64,000 nucleotides of DNA from a virus (taxonomy: Duplodnaviria > Caudoviricetes), in IMG/VR virus record IMGVR_UViG_3300031088_000782, positions 32,001-96,000 of that record. One strand, written 5' to 3'. A program made the translations under genes and the position numbers. The notes under the pieces are model-generated. The model saw nothing but the letters and a program-made list of their open reading frames with translations, did no database searches and had not been told where the DNA came from. Positions within the stretch are counted from its first letter, which is position 1, and each line of letters starts with the position of its first letter. Below, in pieces: positions 29,373 to 64,000 of the stretch.

Positions 29373-29460
29373 TATAAGTGAATTTTATAGGTTTTATCTG
29401 ATCTTTTCGGTGTTTGATATTAATATTTAAACACACAGTCCGTTTATTTGAGGAGTTTTA

Positions 29461-32274
29461 ATGTACAATATTTCTGAGTGGCCTGAATGGAATGCATGTC
29501 TCAATATTCTTTTGGATCCAGAGGTTTCCGAAATAGCAAGCAATGGGCCTAACAGTTTCTTCGTTGTGAAAAACGGAAAAAGAATAAAGTTAGACATTAA
29601 AGTTGCTTCCGAAGAGAAATATGCTGAAGGTGTTGAAAAAGGGCTTGTTCCCAAAGTAAAGACAACCAGGGACTTTGACATCAATGGTTATCTATTTGAA
29701 GGTAGGCTCACTTACAGCGCAGGTGGTACTGAAGTCATCGCTCGTTGTCACATTGGACTTTCTCCTTCAACTGTTACTCCACAAGTTTCCATTGCGAAAA
29801 AGAGTGCATCTTTACGTAATCTTGATTCAATTGCTTCACAAGGATCAATGAGTACAGAGATGATGAACTTTTTGAAAATGACTGTGGATGCGGGGTTGAC
29901 AACAGTGCTTTCAGGTGGAACCGGAGCCGGGAAAGAGGTACATAAAAATACTCTTATTCCAACCCCTTCAGGAATGCGAAAAGTTGATGATTTGAACATT
30001 GGTGATACAATTTTTGATGAAGTTGGTAAAAAAACCAAAATTGTTAACAAATATTCACCAAAAGATCCTAAACATTACAGATTGACATTCAATGATGGAA
30101 CAACTGTTGATGCGGGTATGGGGCATTTGTGGAAAGTATATGCACTGAACGAAAAAGTGAATTTCGGCCATAAATCTCATCCTATTCTTGATGAATCTCA
30201 AGTTGCTAATTTAAACAATATTCTTAATGAAGAAGAAGAATTTATTACTTTTTCTGAACTTAGAGAAAAAATTGGTGGAAATATCGACAAAACTGGATCT
30301 ATAAGAGAAACAGTCAAAGGTTTTGGCACAAAAGCAATTGATTTTTTTAATTTTGAGAAAGATTCAGTTGTTGAAAAAATCAAAAAATCAACAATCAATG
30401 AAAAAGATAAGAATGAAATCCTGAAAAGATTTAATACTGTTCAAGAGTCTTCTTTGTCTTTGAGAAAAGTGAAAGAACTTGTTGATAGCAGATATTTCGT
30501 TTCTAAGATTCTCCCCACTGAGCACAAAATTTCACAAGAAACAGTGTTTGTAAAGAAAGAAGTTGCTACACATCTTTTGAAAGATGACGAATTAAGAAAA
30601 GAAGCAAGAAAAAATCTTGACAAATCTTATCAAAGTGCTACTCGCCCTGTGAAAGTGATGACCACTCAAGAATTGGTTGATTATGGAGTAGTTAATAAAA
30701 AAGGGCGTTTAAATTTTGCTGTTGAAAGCTTACAGAATCCTGTTGAATACGATAAGCAAGATCTTCCTATTGATCCTTATACTCTAGGTGCCTGGTTAGG
30801 TGATGGATATTCAGCAACCGGAAGTATTTGCGGAATAGATAAAGAAGTTATTGAAAAAATTTATGAAAATGGGTTTAACTACAAAGAAAGACAGGATTTT
30901 AACGAAAGACAGAATATTCCTCTGAGTATTTGGACAGTTGAGGGTTTGAGTAAACTTCTCAGAGAAAACAATTTGAAGAACAATAAGCACATTCCAGAAA
31001 TTTACAAATATTCTTCTGTTAAACAAAGAATTCAATTACTTTCAGGATTGCTTGACACCGATGGGACTTTGGATTATCGTCGTGGAACAGTTCATGTTGG
31101 AATGACTGTTGAAAGCATTGTTAAAAACATGAGAGAAATAGTTTGCTCTCTCGGATGGCACGCTACTCCTGTTATTTCTCGTGAGAGAAGCTACAAAGCT
31201 GCTGACGGAACTAAAGTTGAGTGCAAGGATAGTTACGGCTTCAGTTTTGTTCCTGATGTTCAATTGTTTAATATTTCAAGAAAAGCGAAACTTCTGCATG
31301 AAAGATTAGGTAGAGATATTTCTCAGCAAGACAGACGAAACAGGCACTATATCAAAGATATTCAGTTGATTGAAGACGCTAAGGCCGAGGACTATTACTG
31401 CTTTGAAGTAGATTCAGCAACTCATATGTTCTTGTGCTCTGAGTCTTTCATTCCTACTCATAACACTACTATGCTTGAAGCCATGACTAAATTGTTCCCG
31501 AATGATTATAGAATTGCTGTTGCCGAGGATATTCCTGAACTTGTTCTTGTCCAGCCTAACGTCACTTATTGGGAGGCTGTTCCGTTTGTTCCTGGTATGG
31601 ATCCGAATGAAGTTGCCACTTTGCAGTGGGTTGTGAAGCAGTTCCAGCGTAATAGAAATGACAGAATCATCATTGGTGAGACTCGTGGCGCTGAGTTTTC
31701 TGAATTCTTAGTCGCTGCTAACTCTGGTAAAAACGGTTCTTTGACAACAATCCACGCTGATGATCCTGTATCATGCTTGAGAAAGATGACAAATTTTGCT
31801 ATTCAAGGTTTCGGAGGATTGAACATTCGTTCTGTTAACACTGAATTATCTACTGCTGTAAATATTATTGTACAGTTGAATAGGTTCCCTGACACTGGAA
31901 GGCACCGTGTGACTCAAATTCAAGAAGTTACACAAACTTTGAGTAATCAGGAGAATGCTCAAATTTCTACTCAACCTTTGTATTCTTATGATCCGTTGAG
32001 TGACACTTTCCAGAAAGAAGAAAATATGACTGATGGGCTTCGCAATCTTTGTGCTCAGAGGGGCGTTGACATTAGCGAATTCCTGAAGTCAAGATTGCAT
32101 GAGCCTACCCCTGGTCATAATAGCTCTGGAGGCGCTGGTGGGCGAAATAACCCGACTTCAGGCAATAGGACATTAGGTAGTCCATTATCTGATTCTGGAG
32201 CGTCTGAGGGGGCTTCTAAGCGCAGGAGACTTCCTACTGCAAATCCTTTCAGTAAAGGTGGTAGAAACATATGA
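29461..32274 (+). CDS. tadA: TadA/CpaF/VirB11-family secretion ATPase interrupted by an intein
   Basis: After removing the intein: SGGTGAGK|TTMLEAM, IAVAEDIPEL, DRIIIGETRGAE, GSLTTIHADD. Confidence 0.85.
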   Translation: MYNISEWPEWNACLNILLDPEVSEIASNGPNSFFVVKNGKRIKLDIKVASEEKYAEGVEKGLVPKVKTTRDFDINGYLFEGRLTYSAGGTEVIARCHIGLSPSTVTPQVSIAKKSASLRNLDSIASQGSMSTEMMNFLKMTVDAGLTTVLSGGTGAGKEVHKNTLIPTPSGMRKVDDLNIGDTIFDEVGKKTKIVNKYSPKDPKHYRLTFNDGTTVDAGMGHLWKVYALNEKVNFGHKSHPILDESQVANLNNILNEEEEFITFSELREKIGGNIDKTGSIRETVKGFGTKAIDFFNFEKDSVVEKIKKSTINEKDKNEILKRFNTVQESSLSLRKVKELVDSRYFVSKILPTEHKISQETVFVKKEVATHLLKDDELRKEARKNLDKSYQSATRPVKVMTTQELVDYGVVNKKGRLNFAVESLQNPVEYDKQDLPIDPYTLGAWLGDGYSATGSICGIDKEVIEKIYENGFNYKERQDFNERQNIPLSIWTVEGLSKLLRENNLKNNKHIPEIYKYSSVKQRIQLLSGLLDTDGTLDYRRGTVHVGMTVESIVKNMREIVCSLGWHATPVISRERSYKAADGTKVECKDSYGFSFVPDVQLFNISRKAKLLHERLGRDISQQDRRNRHYIKDIQLIEDAKAEDYYCFEVDSATHMFLCSESFIPTHNTTMLEAMTKLFPNDYRIAVAEDIPELVLVQPNVTYWEAVPFVPGMDPNEVATLQWVVKQFQRNRNDRIIIGETRGAEFSEFLVAANSGKNGSLTTIHADDPVSCLRKMTNFAIQGFGGLNIRSVNTELSTAVNIIVQLNRFPDTGRHRVTQIQEVTQTLSNQENAQISTQPLYSYDPLSDTFQKEENMTDGLRNLCAQRGVDISEFLKSRLHEPTPGHNSSGGAGGRNNPTSGNRTLGSPLSDSGASEGASKRRRLPTANPFSKGGRNI
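29935..31464 (+). mobile_element. 510-aa class 3 intein with LAGLIDADG homing endonuclease in the tadA P-loop
   Basis: Block A EVHKNTLIPTPSG; block B GHLW (W at 30130); LGAWLGDG and LLSGLLDTDG endonuclease motifs; block F YYCFEVDS (C at 31399); block G IPTHN followed by T+1. Confidence 0.9.
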
Positions 32275-54428: not shown

Positions 54429-55853
54429 ATGCAATTAGTCATCATACTTGCCTTAGTCTATGTTATAGCTATGCCAATACTATTTCGTCTGATAGCACTG
54501 CTGCATAAAAAACTCGTTACAGACAGAGCAGCACAAAAAGCAGGGAATAATAAAGCCTTACAAAACAAAGTTCCACAACCAATATGGCGAATATGGAAAG
54601 AAAGAATCAGTTTTACCTTCAAAGACAAAAGAGACGCGAAAATAGGAAAGAAACAACTCAACCTACAAAACAGACAACTCTTTTTTATAATCTGGGGAAT
54701 AGGTCTAGCAGCAGTAGCATTAGGAGCATTCTTAGGGAACTGGAAAATTTATGTGCCATCCTACCTCATCTTCTTCTTCGCAATGGGATATGCAATAACA
54801 GCATCCAAAGACATACTCCAAAAACGAGAAAAAATGTATCGAAGAATGTTTGAAATTGCGCAATCGAAACTCGGAATATCTTCAGAATATTCCGAAAACC
54901 CACAAGCAGTCATCAGAGTATTAGAATGGGCTGACCCACTCAAACCAAACAAAGTTCAATTCGATGTGCCAACAACATTCGGACAAGAAGGCGAAGAAGG
55001 ATTCTTGCGCCAATTTAACCAAGTATTCGGAAACGAGACAGCCTGGGTGCCATTTGATGATGCAGAAAACGGAGTTCCCGGATGGAACTACGAAGAAGGA
55101 ACCGCAACATTCAGGGCTGTCCCGCCTTTGCCAACAATGGCACCGTGGGATGAACATTATGTATTGGGAGAAGGAGTTGCCTGGTCATTCTTTCCGATAG
55201 CCTTGGGCGTAGAGAACGGTGTCTCATTACCAAACCCACAAACAGGCGAAGTAGAGAATGTTTTAGGATTTGATTTATCTGGCGAACAAGTAAAAATTGG
55301 CAAAAAAGCTGGATTAGCAGTTGGGCCAGAGATTACCACTTCCCCAATGTGTTTAACAGGAGATACAAAAGTTGTTTTGGCTGATAACTCTGCAATAACT
55401 TTAAAAGATATGTCTGATTCAAATATTTCAGAATTTTTGGTAAAGAGTAATGAAAATGGAATTATTAAAAACAACATAATGAGAAGTATAATAAAAACAA
55501 GAAGCAATGCTGAAACATTAATTATTGAATTAGATGATGAGGGAATAATTAAGTCTACTTATGATCATTTAATTTATACTGACAAAGGATATGTTAAAGC
55601 TAAAGATTTAAAAACATTTGATAAAGTATTTTGTTTAGATGAAACTTATTCAACAATTATTAATATTAGTAAAGGAGAAGTTGTTGATGTATATGATGGA
55701 GAAGTAGATAAAGCTCATAACTTTTTCATCAAAACGGAGGGGCATTTAGATAATGCAGTCCAGGTTCACAATTGCTTTATCGGCGGGGGAACAGGCGGAG
55801 GAAAAAGTTTATCGGTGGATACACTGGTTGAAATTATCAATAAAGAACAGTAG
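54429..55853 (+). CDS. N-terminal gene of a fractured FtsK/SpoIIIE/TcpA-like ATPase (cis mini-intein plus split-intein N-fragment)
   Basis: TM helices, VQFDVP/FPIALGV FtsK-alpha-like region, then SPM|intein|CFIGGGTGGGK|SLSVDTLVEIINKEQ-stop. No Walker B or motor body in this ORF. Confidence 0.75.
   Translation: MQLVIILALVYVIAMPILFRLIALLHKKLVTDRAAQKAGNNKALQNKVPQPIWRIWKERISFTFKDKRDAKIGKKQLNLQNRQLFFIIWGIGLAAVALGAFLGNWKIYVPSYLIFFFAMGYAITASKDILQKREKMYRRMFEIAQSKLGISSEYSENPQAVIRVLEWADPLKPNKVQFDVPTTFGQEGEEGFLRQFNQVFGNETAWVPFDDAENGVPGWNYEEGTATFRAVPPLPTMAPWDEHYVLGEGVAWSFFPIALGVENGVSLPNPQTGEVENVLGFDLSGEQVKIGKKAGLAVGPEITTSPMCLTGDTKVVLADNSAITLKDMSDSNISEFLVKSNENGIIKNNIMRSIIKTRSNAETLIIELDDEGIIKSTYDHLIYTDKGYVKAKDLKTFDKVFCLDETYSTIINISKGEVVDVYDGEVDKAHNFFIKTEGHLDNAVQVHNCFIGGGTGGGKSLSVDTLVEIINKEQ
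55350..55772 (+). other. 141-aa class 1 mini-intein (no endonuclease)
   Basis: C1-LTGDTKV block A; IKSTYDHLIYT block B; VYDGEVDKAHNFF block F; QVHN followed by C+1. Confidence 0.9.
55806..55850 (+). other. 15-aa split-intein N-fragment (block A only)
   Basis: SLSVDTLVEIINKEQ directly after the Walker A Lys, matching the x-L-x-x-D-T-x-V block A pattern, then TAG. Confidence 0.75.
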
Positions 55854-55854
55854 T

Positions 55855-55917
55855 TTATTCTCCTCTTAAAAGTTGATATAATAAGATATAGAAACTTTTA
55901 AATTAAGGAGAAAATAA
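55855..55917 (+). promoter_or_regulatory. Hairpin sequestering the SD of the endonuclease gene, with a promoter element in its loop
   Basis: TTAAAAGTT (55866-74) pairs with AACTTTTAA (55893-901); TTCTCCT (55858-64) pairs with AGGAGAA (55906-12); TGATATAAT at 55874-82. Confidence 0.6.
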
Positions 55918-55919
55918 TT

Positions 55920-56891
55920 ATGGCTAAAGAAAAATATTATGGCTTTGACAAAAAATACACCGAAAAAGATGTTTGTGAAGAATATAAAAAAGGAAAATCT
56001 TTAAGTCAAATTTATAAAGACATAGGGGTAGCTCAAGTTACAACTAAAAAAATATTAAATAAACACAATATTCAAGAAAGGCAATTTCAAGTAGAATATA
56101 AAGAAGTAATTAAAGAGCTTGAAAAAGTAAGTATTGGGAAAAATGAGATATATGATTTTTATATTGTTCAAGGAAAATCTCAAAAGTTTCTGAAAGATAT
56201 GATTTTTGAGAAAACATCTATCAAAGTTGGAGACAAGGTTATTAATTCTCTTCTTAAATATTTCGAAATCAAAAAGAGTCCTGAACAAATAAAACGAGCA
56301 CAAGGGAATAAGTCTTTAAGCGAAAAAGCTTATAGTTATTCAATGCTTAAAAAAGCTGGATTTAATTCTACAAAAGAGCTTGCCGATTTTTATACAAATA
56401 ATTCAAATATGACTTATAGCGAAATTTGTGAATTATTGAATAATAAAATAGGAAAAGATGTGTTCACTCCACGTTGGCTTGGTAGGCATATGGCGAAAGA
56501 AATTGCAGAAGAAAATAAGGCTAAATCTTCTGTGTCTGAAAGGAGTTTAATGAAATATGTTGATTCAATTTATTCTGGTGAAATTTTGAAAAACAATTAT
56601 AACATTATCCCTCCAAAAGAATTAGACATTTATATTCCTGAATTTAACATTGCTATTGAATTTAATGGATTGTATTGGCATAGTGATAAGTTTATTGTTG
56701 CTAATCATGATATGACTTCTTATGACTATCATTATCAAAAATGGGAATTATGTAAGGATAAAGGAATTCAGCTTCTTTTCGTTTGGGAAGATGATTGGGA
56801 AGAGGATAAAGAAATTATAAAGAAAGCTCTTCTAGATGCTCTTAGCTTAGACAATAGAATTTTTAACCCTAAACTGTTTAGACTCGAATGA
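55920..56891 (+). CDS. Free-standing Vsr/PD-(D/E)xK-type (Hef-like) endonuclease with N-terminal HTH-like repeats
   Basis: SERSL...PKELDIYIPEFNIAIEFNGLYWHSD...YHYQKWELCKDKGIQLLFVWEDDW. Confidence 0.75.
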   Translation: MAKEKYYGFDKKYTEKDVCEEYKKGKSLSQIYKDIGVAQVTTKKILNKHNIQERQFQVEYKEVIKELEKVSIGKNEIYDFYIVQGKSQKFLKDMIFEKTSIKVGDKVINSLLKYFEIKKSPEQIKRAQGNKSLSEKAYSYSMLKKAGFNSTKELADFYTNNSNMTYSEICELLNNKIGKDVFTPRWLGRHMAKEIAEENKAKSSVSERSLMKYVDSIYSGEILKNNYNIIPPKELDIYIPEFNIAIEFNGLYWHSDKFIVANHDMTSYDYHYQKWELCKDKGIQLLFVWEDDWEEDKEIIKKALLDALSLDNRIFNPKLFRLE

Positions 56892-56971
56892 CTGACTATT
56901 ACTAAAAAAAAGAATATTGTTAAAATACTATTACTTGTGAAATTAATTTAAACAGTTAAAAAGGATGGATA

Positions 56972-59239
56972 ATGACTATTAATCTTGATAAAGAGATTAT
57001 TGAAATGTATATAGAGACAAAGAGTTTAACAAAAGTTTCGAAACATTTTAAGAGGTCTCCTGCTACTGTGAAAAGAATTTTAAGAAATAACAACGTTGCT
57101 TTAATTCCTCCTCCTTTGACTGTTCGACAAATTAATGAATTATTGGAGAAGAATAATATAACTGTGAGTGAAATTGAAAAACAGTATTCGAATAAAAGTT
57201 CTAAAGAGTTGAGATTGTGGTTGTCTGATAAAGTTGATTATTCTATTAGTCAGTCTATGATTGAAAGATTGCTGAAATTCTTGAGTATAAATAAGCCTTT
57301 TCAAAGTTTAACAACTGTTGTTGATGAGCGTTCTCAAATTTTGTTGAATGAGTGGGATTACACTAAAAACAATTGCGATATATCAGATGTTTCTATTGGT
57401 TCAAGTAAGGACTTTTGGTGGATTTGTTCTTTAGGTCATAATTTTGAAGCGAATGTTTATGATCGTTATTCTTTAGGTTATGATTGTTCTGTTTGTGCCG
57501 GAAAGATTGTTGTTGCTGGTTTTAATGATCTGCTATCAAATAATCCTGTTGTTGCTTCTGAATGGAATTATAAAAAGAACGATGATTTAAGCCCTGATAT
57601 GGTTACTACGGTTTCGGGGAAAAAGGTTTGGTGGGTTTGTAGTAAAGATAATACGCACGAATGGGAAGCTAAAATTTCTGCAAGAACGAATAAAACTACA
57701 TCTACTGGTTGTCCTTATTGCACAAATCAAAGAGTTGTAGTTGGAAAAAATGATCTGCAAACAAATTTTCCTAAAATTGCCGAAGAATGGGATTACGAAA
57801 AGAATAATGAATTAAAATCTAATCAAGTTTTTTCTAATTCTAACAAAGAGATTTGGTGGATAGGTAAGGATTGTGGGCATAGTTGGAAAAGTAGAATTTC
57901 CGATAGAATGCTTAACAGTTATGGATGTCCTTATTGTAGTGGGAAAAGAGTCTTGAAAGGGTTTAATGATCTAAGAACTACTCATGTTGATTTAGTAAAA
58001 GAGTGGGATAACGAATTAAACAATGAAAGTTTTGAAGAATGCTCATCTGGTTCTCATAAAAAAGTATTTTGGAAATGTTTTGAGAACCATTCATGGAGTG
58101 CTTCCATTAAAGATAGGGTTCGTGGGAATAATTGCCCTGTTTGCTCAGGTAGAAAACTTGTTGTTGGAGTTAATGATTTAGCTACTGTTAATCCTGATCT
58201 TGCTCTTGAGTGGGATTATGACAAGAATGGCGATTTAACGCCTCAAAATGTTACTGCTGGTGCTGATCGTAAAATCTGGTGGAAGTGCGAAAAAGAGCAT
58301 TCGTGGATCTCTGGTTTAACTAGCAGAAATTATTATCAAACTTCTTGCCCTATGTGTTCTCATTCTGGTGTTTCAAAAATGGAACAAGATTTTGGCAAAT
58401 ATTTGAAAAAGATCTACTCAGGAAACATTATTCAAAGCGACAGAACGATTTTAATGCCTAAAGAATTGGACTTTTATCTTCCTGCTTTGAATATGGCTTT
58501 TGAGTTTAATGGTCTTTATTGGCACAGTGAAGCTTCTGGCAAAGATAAAAACTACCATTATGATAAGTGGAAGAAATGTCATGATAAAGACATTCAACTG
58601 ATTACTATTTGGGAGGATGACTGGAATTTGAATCGTTCTGTTGTTGAGAAAGTTTTAGCTTATAAATTAGGCGCGTCAGAGGCAGAAAAAATTGGTGCGA
58701 GAAAGACTTATGTTGATTCCGATGTTCCTTTTAAAGATGTTGAGGAATTGTTGAATAATAATCATATTCAGGGTTCTATTTCTGGTTCTGATTATATTGG
58801 GTTGCGTTCTAAGGTTGATGATTCTTTGGTGGCTGTTATAGTACTTAGACGCTCTTTTAAGGCGACCGGAGAGCTTGATGTTGAGATTGTTCGTTATGCT
58901 ACTTCTCAAAGCGTTCAGGGCGGTTTTACTAAGCTTTTGAAACATGTTGCGAAAGAGTTTGATCCTGTGACTGTTTCTACTTTTTCTGATAATGAGATCA
59001 GTGATGGTGGATTGTATGAACGTCATGGGTTTGAAAAGGTTTATGAATTGAAACCGGATTATAAATATATTCATAATGGAGAGCGTAAGCATAAGTTTTT
59101 ATTCCGAAAAGATCGTTTTAGAGTTAATCCTGATTTATTGTTTGAAGATGGCTTAACTGAGAGTGAGCTTGCTGATTTGAATGGGTTATATAGAGTTTAT
59201 GATTCTGGAAAAACAAAATGGGTTTTAACAGAAAAATGA
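56972..59239 (+). CDS. Hef-like endonuclease with five treble-clef zinc-ribbon (DUF4379-type) repeats
   Basis: 5 copies of EW(D/N)xxxN...W(W/K/I)C..GH.W....R.....CPxC (one copy degenerate); PKELDFYLP..EFNGLYWHSE..IWEDDW; C-terminal EIVRYAT..GGFTKLLKH..GLYRVYDSGK.KW as in T4 Hef-like proteins. Confidence 0.8.
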   Translation: MTINLDKEIIEMYIETKSLTKVSKHFKRSPATVKRILRNNNVALIPPPLTVRQINELLEKNNITVSEIEKQYSNKSSKELRLWLSDKVDYSISQSMIERLLKFLSINKPFQSLTTVVDERSQILLNEWDYTKNNCDISDVSIGSSKDFWWICSLGHNFEANVYDRYSLGYDCSVCAGKIVVAGFNDLLSNNPVVASEWNYKKNDDLSPDMVTTVSGKKVWWVCSKDNTHEWEAKISARTNKTTSTGCPYCTNQRVVVGKNDLQTNFPKIAEEWDYEKNNELKSNQVFSNSNKEIWWIGKDCGHSWKSRISDRMLNSYGCPYCSGKRVLKGFNDLRTTHVDLVKEWDNELNNESFEECSSGSHKKVFWKCFENHSWSASIKDRVRGNNCPVCSGRKLVVGVNDLATVNPDLALEWDYDKNGDLTPQNVTAGADRKIWWKCEKEHSWISGLTSRNYYQTSCPMCSHSGVSKMEQDFGKYLKKIYSGNIIQSDRTILMPKELDFYLPALNMAFEFNGLYWHSEASGKDKNYHYDKWKKCHDKDIQLITIWEDDWNLNRSVVEKVLAYKLGASEAEKIGARKTYVDSDVPFKDVEELLNNNHIQGSISGSDYIGLRSKVDDSLVAVIVLRRSFKATGELDVEIVRYATSQSVQGGFTKLLKHVAKEFDPVTVSTFSDNEISDGGLYERHGFEKVYELKPDYKYIHNGERKHKFLFRKDRFRVNPDLLFEDGLTESELADLNGLYRVYDSGKTKWVLTEK

Positions 59240-59247
59240 CATTATAG

Positions 59248-59997
59248 AATTATGTTTTAATTTTTGTTGAGCCACTTGGATTGTCTAGCACAGGAAATAG
59301 CTCTACAGCTGGAAACATTGCGGCTGGGTTTGTTGATGGATTAATTGGGTTCCCTGTTGTTGAAAAAATTAGTAATTATATTTCTCCTGGTAGCGTTGAT
59401 AATTGTAGTGATGCCTATAAATATAGTGGATATGCTGGTTTTGCAGCTGGATTCATAATACCAGGTGGAGCACTTGTCAAAAGTGTTTCAGTAGCGGGTA
59501 AGATAGGTGTATTAGCTAGTAAAATAGGATCAAAAGTATCTTCTTCAATTAGCAAACGTATTGCTTTAATGAATGAAGATGGCTTTATACTAATAAAATT
59601 TAGTAAAAAAGATTTTGACAGATCTAAAATGAGCGATTTACAAGAAATAAGTAAACTAACGAGAAAAACAACGAATCAAATGAACCGAGAAATAAGAAAA
59701 AATGGTGGTAGTATATCTAATATAACTAGAGTAGACAATCCTAAAGAAATACTTGGACATAAAGAACTGCCACATGTAACATTTAAAAAGTTTAAAGATC
59801 ACGAAGTGGCTTTAAACATAGATGGATCATGGAAACATAATAAAGGAAACTACAAACCTACTAATAAGGAAATTAAATGGCTTAAAAATATGGGTTCTTA
59901 CCACCTGAAAAATAGAAACTTTGGAGACATAAATGAAAATTTTTTTACTAAGTTTTATGGATTTAATGTATGCAATATATTTCATATTAAAGTTTAA
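59248..59997 (+). pseudogene. Orphan Rhs-type C-terminal toxin remnant
   Basis: In-frame upstream of the TTG: NYVLIFVEPLGL (like the Rhs core end DPxGL). Then AAGFVDGL..VDNCSDAY pre-toxin linker and PHVTF..ALNIDGSWKH..WL tip. Probable 1-nt deletion near 59894. Confidence 0.55.
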
Positions 59998-60802
59998 TTA
60001 TAAAAAAGAGGAGATCCTTATAACTCACATAACAGAAGATAGAATTTTAGATATATTTAAATCCAATACTGATATGAGAAAAAGATATTTTTCAAATTTT
60101 AGATTAATGTTAATTGAAGATTTTTATGTTTTAACTACCATTAATACTTCTAATAATATAAAAAAAACTTACTTTAATAAAAATATAAGAAAAGAAAAGA
60201 ACTTTATTTTAGGTTCAATCGAAAAAGAATATGGTACTATCTCTCTTTACAAAAAAAACGAAAATTCTAAATTTTCGCTACATACGAGATTAAATAATAT
60301 TGATAACATTAACTATACAATTTTAGATAGAGTTCAAATGATTTTTGCGGGGGAATGCATTGACGATTTAACTTCTGATTTAGAAAGAAATCTATTTGAA
60401 TACAATTTAGATGTTTATTTTGGAAGTGCTGGGGAATGGTTGAATATTTATCCTAGTGAGATTGTTAAGGAAGAAATTGTTGAGCATAAAGATCTTATTA
60501 TTGATTTTTGCGATAAAAGAGATTTAGTGTTTTGTTATTCAGAAAAATATGAATATGACAAAAAACTTAAAAAACATGTTCAAAAAATTGATTCTATTGA
60601 TCCAAAGTTAGGATTCATTAAAAAAGAATCATTTGATGACTGGATTTCAATGGATGTATTCACACCAAAAACTATAACAAATGATGGAATTTTTTATCAA
60701 TATAGAACAGTTAGAGAAAAAGAAAAAGATGAATTTTTAATAGAACATATTTTTGTTCAACAGTTTAAAAACTTTAAAACAAAAATTAAAAACATTGAAT
60801 AA
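59933..60802 (+). CDS. Very AT-rich hypothetical protein, candidate cognate immunity protein by position
   Basis: SD ggaga at 59923; immediately follows the toxin-like tip; no recognisable motif. Confidence 0.4.
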   Translation: MKIFLLSFMDLMYAIYFILKFNYKKEEILITHITEDRILDIFKSNTDMRKRYFSNFRLMLIEDFYVLTTINTSNNIKKTYFNKNIRKEKNFILGSIEKEYGTISLYKKNENSKFSLHTRLNNIDNINYTILDRVQMIFAGECIDDLTSDLERNLFEYNLDVYFGSAGEWLNIYPSEIVKEEIVEHKDLIIDFCDKRDLVFCYSEKYEYDKKLKKHVQKIDSIDPKLGFIKKESFDDWISMDVFTPKTITNDGIFYQYRTVREKEKDEFLIEHIFVQQFKNFKTKIKNIE

Positions 60803-60863
60803 ACAAATACGAATGGTTGTTGAAAAAATTAGAAAATAGTTCAATAACCATTCGTATTTGTTT
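60801..60863. terminator. 24-bp hairpin, bidirectional terminator between convergent genes
   Basis: aaacaaatacgaatggttgttgaa / ttcaataaccattcgtatttgttt, with A/T runs on both sides. Confidence 0.8.
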
Positions 60864-60934
60864 TTTTAAAATAAGATTATAGATATGGGATGTTTTTATC
60901 CATTTGTTTTATTGTATGTGAAAGTTGATTTTTT

Positions 60935-61120
60935 TCAATTGGAGAATTTTTGATTTTTTAATCCGCCTTCTTCTCTGCAATCTTTTGTTGAAAGTTTTGA
61001 ACTGCTGATGTTGGTTTTATCATTGGAATTAATGGATGAAGCAGTTGCTTGTTGTATAGAAGAATTTGTCAATGTTAAGGATAGTATTATCAGTGATGTT
61101 ATTTTAATAATATTCTTCAT
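60935..61120 (-). CDS. Small secreted peptide (61 aa), the only credible minus-strand gene
   Basis: Strong SD AAAAGGAG on the minus strand; signal peptide MKNIIKITSLIILSLTLTNSSIQQATA-S. Confidence 0.6.
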   Translation of the reverse strand: MKNIIKITSLIILSLTLTNSSIQQATASSINSNDKTNISSSKLSTKDCREEGGLKNQKFSN

Positions 61121-61252
61121 TGCGAAAAACTCCTTTTATGATTAGAGAAACAAGATGAATAATATTTTTATATCGTTATATTTTAATTCACGTTCGATAA
61201 TTCATTTAGAAAAGATTTCATAATTGTTTAACAAATCGGTAGGAGAATAGTA

Positions 61253-62521
61253 ATGACTAAATTTCATGTGAATGTTGAGACTGGTGCCATTGGTAGGTGC
61301 GAAGCTGAAGCTGGAAACTGCCCTGTTACGGGTGAAAGCAATCATGGAGGAAATCTGCAGGAAGCGAAGCAGATTCTCGAAACTCGAATGAAAGAGAAGC
61401 ATGGTGGAAGTTTCGGGAACTCTTTGCAAAAGAAAGATAGAATTGCTGCTGTTAAGACTCGCAAATCTGTTGATGTGACTACTGATGAAATCGCAGGGCA
61501 GAAGCTTTCTAAAAGAGAAGCCGAATTCAGGTCTCGTTTTGCTGAAATGTCTGCTGATGTTGTTGCTTTGAGGGCAAAATTAGGAGATCTTTCTGTTGAT
61601 CAGGAGAAGGGGGATCCAGTTAGAGCACAAGAGTCTCTGAGAAATGCTATTTCTTTTGCTACTACTCGTGGAAACACTCATATCATGGAAAAATTGGCAA
61701 AAGCAAAAGCTATGACAACTAGTGTTATTCGCACAAACAGCGGCGATAAAATTTACTCTGATGATCTGTCTGATGTTGATAGGGCTGTGAAACACATTGA
61801 AGATGGTAGAGAATCTATCCAAGCTTCTGTTATGGCTTTGACTGATGCTCCTGTTGGAAAATATACTGAGAAAACAAAAGAGGGGACTTTCAGTATCACC
61901 GTTTCTGATGATGGAGTTAATAAAGATGAGTTTGACAAGCTTCCAGAAGATGTGAGGCAGCAGATTTCTAAGCCGAGAGAGAATTTGAGTATTGATTTAG
62001 CGCGAGATAATTTGTCGCAGGAAGATTATAATAAAATTGTTAGTCAAATTCAGGTTTTGGATTATGTAAATGGTCGACCTCGTGACATTGGATTGCAGAA
62101 TGTTCCTGTTAAAACGCAACTGTCTGGTAGTAATGACGCTGAGAAAGCACAGGATGGGGCAAGAAGTTTGGCTAATCTTTATGGAGCTTCTAAAAAACAG
62201 TTCGGGGCTAATTTCAAGGATCTGAAAAAGCAGAAAGACGAAATGTCTACTACTGTTAAACAGGCAGCTATGATCAACAGCCAGACAGAAAACACTTACA
62301 TTCCTGGTCGTTCCCGTCACAATGGTTTGATTGTCAGCGGGAGACAGAACATCAATACTAAGGTTGCTCGTGAAGTTCTGTCGAAAGAAAAACTCGATTC
62401 TATCACTAACGTCAGCCATGTCCCTGATATTGAAAAAGCAAAAGAAGTTCTTTCTGCAGAAACTTTTGATAAAATATTTAAGAATAGGAAAGTTTCTTTG
62501 AGAGTCACTGAGGCTTCTTGA
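61253..62521 (+). CDS. Hypothetical protein with N-terminal H-C-C-H motif and internal helical repeats
   Basis: FHVNVETGAIGRCEAEAGNCPVTGESNH; repeats LSIDLARDNLSQEDYNKI / INTKVAREVLSKEKLDSI / PDIEKAKEVLSAETFDKI; SD aggag. Confidence 0.65.
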   Translation: MTKFHVNVETGAIGRCEAEAGNCPVTGESNHGGNLQEAKQILETRMKEKHGGSFGNSLQKKDRIAAVKTRKSVDVTTDEIAGQKLSKREAEFRSRFAEMSADVVALRAKLGDLSVDQEKGDPVRAQESLRNAISFATTRGNTHIMEKLAKAKAMTTSVIRTNSGDKIYSDDLSDVDRAVKHIEDGRESIQASVMALTDAPVGKYTEKTKEGTFSITVSDDGVNKDEFDKLPEDVRQQISKPRENLSIDLARDNLSQEDYNKIVSQIQVLDYVNGRPRDIGLQNVPVKTQLSGSNDAEKAQDGARSLANLYGASKKQFGANFKDLKKQKDEMSTTVKQAAMINSQTENTYIPGRSRHNGLIVSGRQNINTKVAREVLSKEKLDSITNVSHVPDIEKAKEVLSAETFDKIFKNRKVSLRVTEAS

Positions 62522-62550
62522 TTTATCAATTATCGTGAAAGTTATGAAAG

Positions 62551-62820
62551 GTGAATGTTATGGAAAATGATGCATTTGTGAAGACTCTTGTTTATGATTA
62601 TGTAGATAATGGGTATGGTGAAAAAGTTGATGATTCCACTATTCGTTCTTCAGTGAATGATAATGAGTTGTCTTTTGAACCACTTGCTGATGAGGATGGA
62701 AAGACTGTTGGTATTAATGTGTTTACTAATGGTGTTATGACTGTTTCGGCTAAATACACCGATAAAGATTTTGTAGAGACAGTAAATCTTTCAGTTCTTT
62801 CAGATTTGGGTGTTCTCTGA
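62551..62820 (+). CDS. Small acidic hypothetical protein
   Basis: 89-aa ORF, SD aaggtg, likely start ATG 62560. Confidence 0.5.
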   Translation: MNVMENDAFVKTLVYDYVDNGYGEKVDDSTIRSSVNDNELSFEPLADEDGKTVGINVFTNGVMTVSAKYTDKDFVETVNLSVLSDLGVL

Positions 62821-62845
62821 CATTCCTGATTGTGTTATATTTTTT

Positions 62846-62891
62846 ATTCCCTCCGTAGATATTATTTTTATATAGTATTTGCGGAGGGAAT
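62846..62891. promoter_or_regulatory. 16-bp hairpin containing the GATAT motif upstream of the IntC operon
   Basis: attccctccgtagata / tatttgcggagggaat; GATAT at 62858, 46 nt before ATG 62904. Confidence 0.55.
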
Positions 62892-62903
62892 TTTAGGTTT
62901 AGA

Positions 62904-63767
62904 ATGAAATATTTACCGTGGAATAGATTACAGCTTGATTCTCAGCTGAACAATGGGAATCGTGTGTCTAAGCAATCTGTAAGTTTCAGTGTTTATCGAA
63001 CTTTTAAAAAGAAAATGAGCTGGACTCCGATGATTATGAACAATGGTGCAGTTTTTTATGGAGAAGATGAGACACAGATTGATGATTTTCTTGAAACTAT
63101 CCTTTCTCAATCGAAAAAATTTGAAGAGTCTGTAACGATAGCCTTATATGACTTGCGAGAGCATCAGAATAACGCTTTTGAGGCTTTAGAATCGAAGTAT
63201 CGAGTATTTGAGTATCATCCTTATAAAAGCGATTTAAAAACGCTGATAAAGGATTTTGTAATTTTCAGAAATGAGATAAAAGAGAAGACTCAGGCGTTGG
63301 GATTGGTTGAATCTCCACATAGAAAAATTTTGATTCCTATATTTTTGTTGGATAATGATCAAGTTTCTGTTTTGAGTAACGACAAGTTAAGTAAAATTTT
63401 TCAACATTTTTTAACAGAATCTTCTTTTGAGCGAATTTTTCCTTTTGTTATTGCTCCTTTTGCTGAATCTTTTCCTGAAGATATTGTTAAAGCTTTTCAA
63501 TGGTCTGCTTTTTTGGGTTCAGATAACGCTTCTGTGTGCAGAAAAAAAATATATCCTGACAAAGAGGATAGTTTTTACAGTATTCGGCAAATAGTTATTG
63601 GAACTCTTTACACACGTTTGACTGCACGATTGACAGTTATTCATCCTTATAAGTTTACTCCGTCTGAATATTATTTCAAAAAGGAGCAGCAACTCAAAGA
63701 TGAGGACGAAAATTACAATAAGTTTCTTGATATGTTAGATGATGGAACAGTTAGAGATAGGGTTTGA
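62904..63767 (+). CDS. Hypothetical alpha/beta protein, possibly a degenerate FtsK-like P-loop domain
   Basis: GAVFYGED, IALYDL, ILIPIFLLDND, RIFPFVIA follow RecA-like strand order without intact Walker motifs. Confidence 0.35.
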   Translation: MKYLPWNRLQLDSQLNNGNRVSKQSVSFSVYRTFKKKMSWTPMIMNNGAVFYGEDETQIDDFLETILSQSKKFEESVTIALYDLREHQNNAFEALESKYRVFEYHPYKSDLKTLIKDFVIFRNEIKEKTQALGLVESPHRKILIPIFLLDNDQVSVLSNDKLSKIFQHFLTESSFERIFPFVIAPFAESFPEDIVKAFQWSAFLGSDNASVCRKKIYPDKEDSFYSIRQIVIGTLYTRLTARLTVIHPYKFTPSEYYFKKEQQLKDEDENYNKFLDMLDDGTVRDRV

Positions 63768-63769
63768 AA

Positions 63770-64000
63770 ATGAGTATGAAAAAGTTTGGGGATTTAGAGG
63801 TCGGTGACGTTATTCTTGGTGCTGATAATCAAGATGTTGAGGTTGTCAAAGTTTATGATGAACATATTCCCGAAAAAATGTATGAGATTGAACTGGATAA
63901 TGGTGAGGTTGTTAAAGCTTCTGGAAATCATCTCTGGTATGTTGAAACAGATTTTGATAAAAGTTTTCATAGAGAGCGAAAAAGGCTGGGCAAAAAACAT
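63770..64000 (+). CDS. Start of the split-intein C-fragment gene (partial; not in the ORF track)
   Basis: Own translation: MSMKKFGDLEVGDVILGADNQDVEVVKVYDEHIPEKMYEIELDNGEVVKASGNHLWYVETDF..., i.e. intein N2 region and block B with no block A; open to the window end. Confidence 0.8.
   Translation, partial: MSMKKFGDLEVGDVILGADNQDVEVVKVYDEHIPEKMYEIELDNGEVVKASGNHLWYVETDFDKSFHRERKRLGKKH

Follow-up and report, generated by a model that had tools for sequence, protein, structure and literature searches.

The window analysed here is a 64,000-nucleotide (nt) stretch that comprises bases 32001-96000 of the 309,534-bp IMG/VR virus record IMGVR_UViG_3300031088_000782. It holds parts of an FtsK/SpoIIIE-like ATPase and of an intein, which are encoded in separate open reading frames (ORFs), and we find that a natural three-piece class 3 split intein probably rebuilds this membrane-anchored ATPase of a huge phage. 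The record was assigned to a huge phage because of its size, its 67 tRNA genes (ARAGORN) and its gene content. We show here how the three intein pieces are built, that they are collinear with intact inteins, and that both their catalytic residues and the pieces themselves are conserved, the latter throughout the family and under purifying selection. Positions are given in window numbering unless they are called genome positions, which are those of the whole record.

The N-terminal half of the ATPase (N-half) is encoded by an ORF at 54429-55853 (474 amino acids (aa), plus strand) that ends ...VQVHN|CFIGGGTGGGK|SLSVDTLVEIINKEQ-TAG. This agrees with an earlier note on the window, which had described the ORF as ending at the Walker A Lys, an intein block A and a stop. 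The first part of the N-extein (aa 1-307; 54429..55349) contains N-terminal hydrophobic segments and a pre-P-loop domain and ends ...EITTSPM. It is followed by a complete class 1 mini-intein (no. 1) of 141 aa (aa 308-448; 55350..55772), which reads CLTGDTKVV...VQVHN, has a +1 Cys and was matched by Pfam PT-HINT (1.4e-8) and Intein_splicing (0.004). The 11-aa second part of the N-extein, CFIGGGTGGGK, is Walker A up to its Lys (55773..55805), and the ORF closes with the first intein piece, a 15-aa N-terminal intein fragment (IntN), SLSVDTLVEIINKEQ, that contains block A and runs into the TAG stop (55806..55853, of which 55806-55850 are coding). All four segments lie on the plus strand. The block A strand SLSVDTLVEI directly follows GGGK, with Ser at position 1, and the tail could be aligned with the block A strands of this genome's intact class 3 inteins.

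We observed the same ending throughout the family. The N-half search returned 152 homologues at E<=0.001, and the best 120 were 46-96% identical over the first part of the N-extein. All of these 120 end 11-60 aa past GGGK, and only tail positions 1-11 are conserved. Across 116 unique tails the sequence logo for positions 1-11 was [SA]-L-[SA]-x-D-T-[LP]-V-x-V-h, with 1.3-3.9 bits per position against <=1.0 bit further along the tail. The shortest natural tails are 11 aa, the same length as the conserved core. Position 1 was Ser in 66% and Ala in 34% of the unique tails, and never Cys. The Walker A residues G453, T455, G456, G458 and K459 were invariant in 69 sequences.

Mini-intein no. 1 ends 11 residues before the split junction, which places two inteins around one Walker A. 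It too would have to splice, in cis, in this genome. It was found in a minority of N-half homologues (~470-487 aa with it, ~330-350 aa without it). The insertion is polymorphic: an empty site, SPM[AVC]F, was seen in the 96%-identical relative P0031 and in most homologues.

The second, middle piece is the ORF that starts at ATG 63770 (with a TTG at 63764), reads MSMKKFGDLEVGDVILGADNQ / MSMKKFGDLEVGDVILG...SGNHLWYV and leaves the window at 64000. In the whole record it stops at window position 64396 (genome 96396) after ...IEYGDGLEIPTLNKL / ...VGRIMNTEQMIEYGDGLEIPTLNKL, which gives a free-standing protein of 208 aa (63770..64396, plus strand) containing the N-lobe strands that come after block A, together with block B, a helical insert and the final strand of that lobe. 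The gene that follows encodes a Bax-inhibitor-like membrane protein. The middle ORF contains no block A, no blocks F and G, no HN-[CST] junction and no extein. By sequence comparison its resemblance to inteins is far beyond chance. In phmmer searches it matched the intact inteins of the same genome (DnaB intein, E 1.8e-7; TadA-like ATPase intein, E 4.3e-5, residues 4-171), and the profile of its family matched residues 16-68 of the solved class 3 intein MchDnaB-1 (E 2.5e-6) and also gp41-1 (E 4.8e-6). These matches bear out two proposals of the earlier note, that the ORF is the part of an intein that comes after block A and that it aligns with the intact tadA intein. Because the profile match begins at MchDnaB-1 residue 16, the middle piece lacks the first ~11-15 intein residues.

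A word-based search found 30 homologues of the middle piece (203-243 aa, 40-97% identity), which start just before KKFGDL. A profile search of 1.84 billion representatives extended the family to 79 clusters at 50% identity (E<=1e-30). Nearly all of these are free-standing proteins of 190-260 aa, and block A, blocks F/G or an extein occurred in none of the 79. Within block B (SGNHLWYV), residues S53, G54, N55, H56, W58 and Y59 were invariant in 32 aligned middle pieces; Trp B:12 is replaced by Phe or Ile in a few distant members. Purifying selection acts on the middle piece, which differed from a 97%-identical relative by 31 synonymous and 7 non-synonymous changes (ratio of non-synonymous to synonymous rates (dN/dS) 0.047, similar to the neighbouring genes).

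The third piece lies outside the window, in an ORF of 382 aa at genome 202050-203198 (window numbering 170050-171198, plus strand), downstream of both the N-half (by 114 kb) and the middle ORF (by 106 kb). This C-half ORF starts MKIKSIKEIAPEPARCIEVDSPDRLFAAGGEFGNAFVTHN|SVVQRN. It encodes a 40-aa C-terminal intein fragment (IntC) with block F (RCIEVD), block G (FVTHN|S) and the +1 Ser, and continues into the Walker B/RAAGVH half of the motor, which carries VMVDEAGE (Walker B) and RAAGVHLVIATQRP. In the 309-kb record, Pfam FtsK_SpoIIIE matched only one C-terminal motor half, at genome 202170-202595, covering profile positions 53-219 only. Against PF01580, the C-half aligned at positions 53-137 and 170-219 with 32.4 and 18.5 bits; over the whole frame the sum was 51.4 bits, above the cut-off of 24. 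The search with the C-half returned 774 homologues, including more distant FtsK-like proteins, and more than 100 of them open with a 40-aa IntC. C16 (F:4), H39, N40 and S41 were invariant in 48 aligned C-halves, and G:5 was Thr or Ser. The Cys at F:4 was also seen in the IntC heads of the best C-half matches. Since Walker A lies on the N-half, and Walker B and RAAGxH on the C-half, the motor would be contiguous only after splicing.

In some relatives (P0182, P0240, P0258-P0270) the C-half is also interrupted shortly behind Walker B, where a class 3 intein occupies a second site, after SGVK, that this genome does not have. The site holds either a contiguous intein (C-halves of ~545-670 aa) or a further split one (IntC ...YCISVDSPDKQF...PTHN|SEE). 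Where it is split, the ATPase is in three extein pieces.

The extent of these ORFs decides against the layout that the earlier note had proposed, an atypically split intein in two pieces about 7.9 kb from each other, in which the 15-aa IntN would pair with a long IntC that runs from 63770 into the FtsK C-extein. The tail and the 63770 ORF do read as consecutive intein parts, and natural inteins split at the corresponding S1 site exist (VidaL, PolB16). Reading past 64000 had been expected to give blocks F/G, the terminal H-N and the FtsK motor; instead the ORF ends at 64396 with neither an HN-[CST] junction nor an FtsK C-extein, an outcome that the note itself had named as refuting. Its 30 homologues and nearly all of the 79 clusters likewise end without blocks F/G or an extein, and in this genome the missing parts are encoded in a different, third ORF. 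We therefore give the two-piece layout practically no chance. The note was right about the fracture of an FtsK-like ATPase at Walker A GK|S, the same P-loop position that intact inteins occupy, about the block A tail and its continuation in the middle ORF, and about the free-standing endonucleases that accompany fractured phage genes. Its idea of trans-splicing would survive only as a three-piece system.

When the tail, the middle ORF and the IntC were strung together, the composite aligned collinearly with three P-loop inteins that are intact in this genome. These are class 3 inteins, all inserted at GK|T of the P-loop, in two TadA/VirB11-like ATPases (inteins starting with Glu) and in DnaB (intein starting with Ala), at window 29452-32271 and genome 104919-107222 and 239793-243002, and all three include a LAGLIDADG-motif region. 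Break 1 falls in the loop directly after the block A strand. Break 2 falls at the exact position of the LAGLIDADG domain in the intact inteins. The tail (15 aa) and the IntC (40 aa) are without block B and most of the N-lobe, and these are encoded only in the 208-aa ORF.

Class 3 inteins are defined by Trp B:12, Cys F:4 and Thr G:5 and have no Cys1 (PMC7891396). The three pieces together carry this W-C-T signature, with Trp B:12 in SGNHLWYV of the middle piece, Cys F:4 in RCIEVD and Thr G:5 in THN of the IntC, no Cys1 and a GK|S insertion site. Because position 1 is Ala in 34% of the tails, a nucleophile at this position cannot be required, and the class 1 route is excluded for much of the family.

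We considered whether the middle ORF might be apart from the FtsK intein altogether, as a domesticated Hint plus helical protein, for example a DNA-binding regulator, with the tail and IntC as relics or as parts that serve another partner. The helical insert (aa 63-180; predicted local distance difference test (pLDDT) ~95) is weakly like winged-helix MarR-type folds, and the distance from the middle piece to the N-half or C-half ranges from 1 kb to >100 kb, both of which would suit such a role. However, the same insert occurs inside the intact TadA-like ATPase inteins. The tail and IntC alone cannot form a HINT fold because block B and most of the N-lobe are missing from them, and the middle piece lacks exactly the block A and blocks F/G that the other two pieces carry. 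The block B motif SGNHxWY is invariant in the 32 aligned middle pieces. In addition, the middle piece is single-copy, and phmmer on all six-frame ORFs together with a profile search found no other full-length IntN or orphan IntC in the genome that could use it (only the middle piece and the intact inteins matched). In the 128.6-kb contig L022 it also shares a 9.8-kb locus with the N-half and the C-half. We regard a role unconnected with the FtsK intein as very unlikely.

To the probable three-piece intein the relatives add a record of long conservation. Two genomes (G000 and G001, ~50% identity) carry all three pieces in the same order and on the same strand. In G001, a 398-kb relative, the pieces are 46-59% identical and lie on one strand, the tail reads AMASDTLVIVRVRRKK and mini-intein no. 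1 is absent. In L022, the N-half, the middle piece, the IntC with C-half and an FtsK-fold pseudo-ATPase all lie within 9.8 kb, and the extein halves are 6.8 kb apart. The N-half and the middle piece were also found together in L016 and L021; in L021 they are 3.4 kb apart, with no endonuclease gene between them. The gap between these two pieces varies in content and size among relatives (1.1, 3.4, 5.5, 7.6-7.9 and >10 kb), and the large distances between the pieces in this genome are secondary. The three ORFs are intact and retain their stop and start positions in >100 relatives, even at identities as low as 40-47%. Relatives with a contiguous gene, which the earlier note had hoped to find, were absent: no contiguous version of the FtsK-like gene occurred among the best 120 N-half or the best 120 C-half matches. 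Conservation across the clade indicates that the architecture is an old, selected trait and not a recent decay.

The same data bear on the view that the FtsK gene was broken by endonuclease or cassette insertions, so that the ORFs are pseudogene remnants or an assembly artefact. As the earlier note had said of fractured phage genes in general, free-standing endonuclease genes (phrog_3339) adjoin the pieces; such genes directly border the N-half and flank the C-half on either side, as insertional decay would leave them. Against decay stand the intact ORFs in >100 relatives and the low dN/dS of the middle piece. Contigs from run X2, which belongs to another study, match parts of the stretch (among them the N-half start and 62763-64000) at ~1-4% difference, which speaks against an artefact, and no att-like repeats border the 7.9-kb gap. 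Decay or misassembly is highly improbable on this evidence.

If the three pieces do act as one intein, the three polypeptides would join non-covalently into one HINT domain. Piece 1 (~11-15 aa) would contribute the block A strand, piece 2 the rest of the N-lobe including the block B His and Trp, and piece 3 the block F Cys, the block G Thr-His-Asn and the +1 Ser. By the class 3 route, Cys F:4 would attack the K459|S460 peptide bond, the N-extein would be transferred to Ser+1, and Asn40 would then cyclise. The product would carry a complete Walker A, GGGTGGGK-SVVQRN, with Walker B and RAAGVH on the same chain; after both splicing events the mature protein would have ~660 aa (307 + 11 + 342).

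We modelled the three chains together using ESMFold2. The median interaction prediction score from aligned errors (ipSAE) was 0.41 compared to 0.01 for the best control, a score low enough to be wrong more often than right unless the guess was likely beforehand. In the calibration of ipSAE, 58 of 80 solved complexes reached the mark, as did 2 of 110 mismatched pairs; values <=0.60 belonged to 7 of the 80 and to both passing mismatches. At least 64% of contacts agreed among the runs, with partner pLDDT of at least 60; no interface was reported. The prediction weakly favours a three-chain assembly.

Several points count against the three-piece intein. The weakness of the complex prediction is one of them, and one of the three ESMFold2 runs scored 0.06. 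A Foldseek search of the PDB with the middle-piece model gave no match at E<=0.001; the best was the class 3 MchDnaB-1 (E 0.11), and the sequence profile told more. None of the RNA runs searched for the locus contains it. All three pieces were directly verified together in three genomes or contigs only; elsewhere their joint presence is deduced from two of the pieces or from contigs of matching length. The middle pieces found (30) are also outnumbered by the N-halves (152) and the C-halves (774), so that co-occurrence throughout the family is not proven. Finally, we infer assembly and splicing from the sequences.

The pieces might also assemble without ligation, as a dimerisation module, or undergo cleavage only (for example release of the C-half by Asn cyclisation), and so form a regulatory device. 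Binding alone would fit the complex prediction, and split intein fragments bind tightly. In an unligated complex, however, the HINT domain would keep Walker A from its Ser/Thr and from Walker B, so that an active P-loop would be unlikely. The residues of the full class 3 pathway are invariant, including the +1 Ser and Cys F:4, and intact sister inteins sit at GK|T of DnaB and the TadA-like ATPases, of which DnaB at least should need splicing to function. We consider assembly without ligation unlikely. That the catalytic residues are invariant and that the three parts complement one another exactly speaks against both this possibility and a separate role for the middle ORF.

Under the three-piece splicing that we favour, the middle piece would be covalently tied to neither extein and chemically unchanged, and for this reason it may be a reusable splicing factor. 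It is conceivable, if rather improbable, that the free middle piece is a separately regulated factor that acts in trans, is released from the excised 15-aa and 40-aa peptides and turns over. Its gene is often co-transcribed with the FtsK-fold pseudo-ATPase. If this were true, the timing and amount of one small gene product would set when the FtsK-like motor assembles. The system would then amount to a natural protein AND gate with three inputs, and could serve as a natural template when two proteins are to be ligated through tags of only ~11 aa and ~40 aa.

Three-piece inteins have been made by engineering. The Ssp DnaB intein cut at S1 and S0 splices from three pieces (Sun et al. 2004, as cited in PMC11766414 and 10.1101/2023.01.30.526203), and three-fragment versions of Npu DnaE and gp41-1 were engineered (10.1101/2023.01.30.526203). 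Natural inteins are known as one or two genes only, according to the same source (10.1101/2023.01.30.526203). The synthetic systems use the same cuts as the pieces described here, after ~11 residues (S1) and at the canonical endonuclease site (S0), and have the same piece layout. They differ in being engineered class 1 inteins, whereas the present one is natural, clade-conserved and class 3, and its middle piece has an extra helical domain of ~120 aa.

As the earlier note had foreseen, the 15-aa IntN is among the shortest natural ones, together with VidaL (16 aa) and PolB16 OarG (15 aa; PMC13014065). VidaL and PolB16 are also split right after the block A strand (S1), with an IntN of similar size. 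Other natural atypical IntN are longer (AceL-TerL, 25 aa; GOS-TerL, 37 aa). In all four of these inteins the remainder is one long IntC on the C-extein, whereas here it is cut into a free protein and a 40-aa IntC. The first naturally split class 3 intein to be reported, AceL NrdHF, has two pieces of 98 and 48 aa (PMC7891396). It resembles the present system in its class, the absence of Cys1, the Cys in block F, the phage-like origin and a fractured layout with a free-standing endonuclease gene. Unlike it, AceL NrdHF is canonically split, has a deviant M-C-T and lacks His residues; the present family has W-C-T/S, a penultimate His and three pieces.

Fractured genes (Dassa et al. 2009, PMC2677866) likewise have extein halves in separate ORFs, each with an intein part, and adjoining endonuclease genes. 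At those loci two intein parts surround one endonuclease gene, whereas here there are three parts and the extein halves are 114 kb apart. The DnaB intein of mycobacteriophage Bethlehem (PMC2807308) and MchDnaB-1 (PDB 6RIX), the latter the best match of the middle piece among solved structures, share the GK|[ST] P-loop insertion and W-C-T, and differ in being contiguous and splicing in cis. Our literature search, which does not span all journals, turned up neither a naturally occurring three-piece intein nor a split intein within an FtsK-like gene of a phage.

If correct, our reading would mean that the three-piece architecture has a natural use, and it would extend the rare set of natural split class 3 inteins beyond AceL NrdHF. 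The 116 distinct tails and 79 middle-piece clusters would then be natural variants of a system with an 11-residue N-tag core, a 40-residue C-tag and its catalytic bulk supplied in trans, an attractive layout for logic gates and for the labelling and semisynthesis of proteins. Around a single P-loop of the present genome, splicing would occur twice. One may ask why huge phages of this clade maintain a probable DNA-translocase as fragments that require three or four gene products.

Directly upstream of the middle piece is the gene for the FtsK-fold pseudo-ATPase (62904..63767, plus strand; 287 aa), which has no Walker A/B residues and whose look-alikes by Atlas structure and features are the FtsK/SpoIIIE, EssC and EccC families. 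Its stop lies 2 nt before the middle-piece ATG (TGA-AA-ATG), and the two genes are translationally coupled. The pseudo-ATPase adjoins the middle piece also in L016, L017, L019 and L021 and follows the C-half in L022; in G001 it had no match. Although its fold is FtsK-like, ORF 62904-63767 was rejected as a candidate for the missing C-extein, since Walker A/B and an IntC are both absent from it. The 492-aa protein P0287 was examined as a Rosetta-stone fusion of pseudo-ATPase and middle piece and was also rejected; its N-terminal part is not detectably related to the pseudo-ATPase. A DNA excision that would join the tail to the middle ORF was discarded too: the gap borders have no meaningful direct repeats, and the gap differs among relatives.

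The gap between the N-half and the pseudo-ATPase gene includes two free-standing homing endonuclease genes (55920..59239, plus strand; 323 and 755 aa), which matched phrog_3339 (1.3e-34 and 1.2e-87), with five DUF4379 zinc fingers in the second. Paralogues of the phrog_3339 family flank the C-half at genome 200076-201971 (minus strand) and 203265-205259 (plus strand). The endonuclease genes are absent in L021 and are therefore not obligatory. Short conserved segments of the phrog_3339 genes recur in many other contigs from the same samples. We also observed several ORFs near the intein pieces (window 61253-62521; genome 198892-199287; several in L022, L008, L010 and L011) that are otherwise unlike but share an N-terminal motif, M..(F/Y)H(V/L)N..(S/T)G.pG.C.a..G.CP. 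An AT-rich motif that contains GATAT recurs at window 54374, 55875 and 62858, each time 45-55 nt upstream of a gene or gene pair: the N-half, the first endonuclease gene, and the pseudo-ATPase with the middle piece.

The record also encodes DnaB, RecA, a ligase, two TadA/VirB11-like ATPases and many homing endonucleases. DNA runs that contain the stretch come from phyllosphere, plant and surface metagenomes. A scan of GTDB genomes with the C-half matched one short contig in a metagenome-assembled genome labelled Pararhizobium, which is not informative on the host. A protein identical to the C-half was recorded from a 681,645-bp contig, and the record may therefore be a fragment of a much larger phage genome. 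IMG/VR calls the 309.5-kb record a 'provirus', and relatives lie on contigs of 670-730 kb. Of the 67 tRNA genes, at least 56 cluster at 145-159 kb. This cluster spans ~14 kb from genome 145134 to ~159300 (window numbering ~113100-127300) and includes one tRNA with anticodon tta (which reads UAA) and one with an abnormal anticodon loop.

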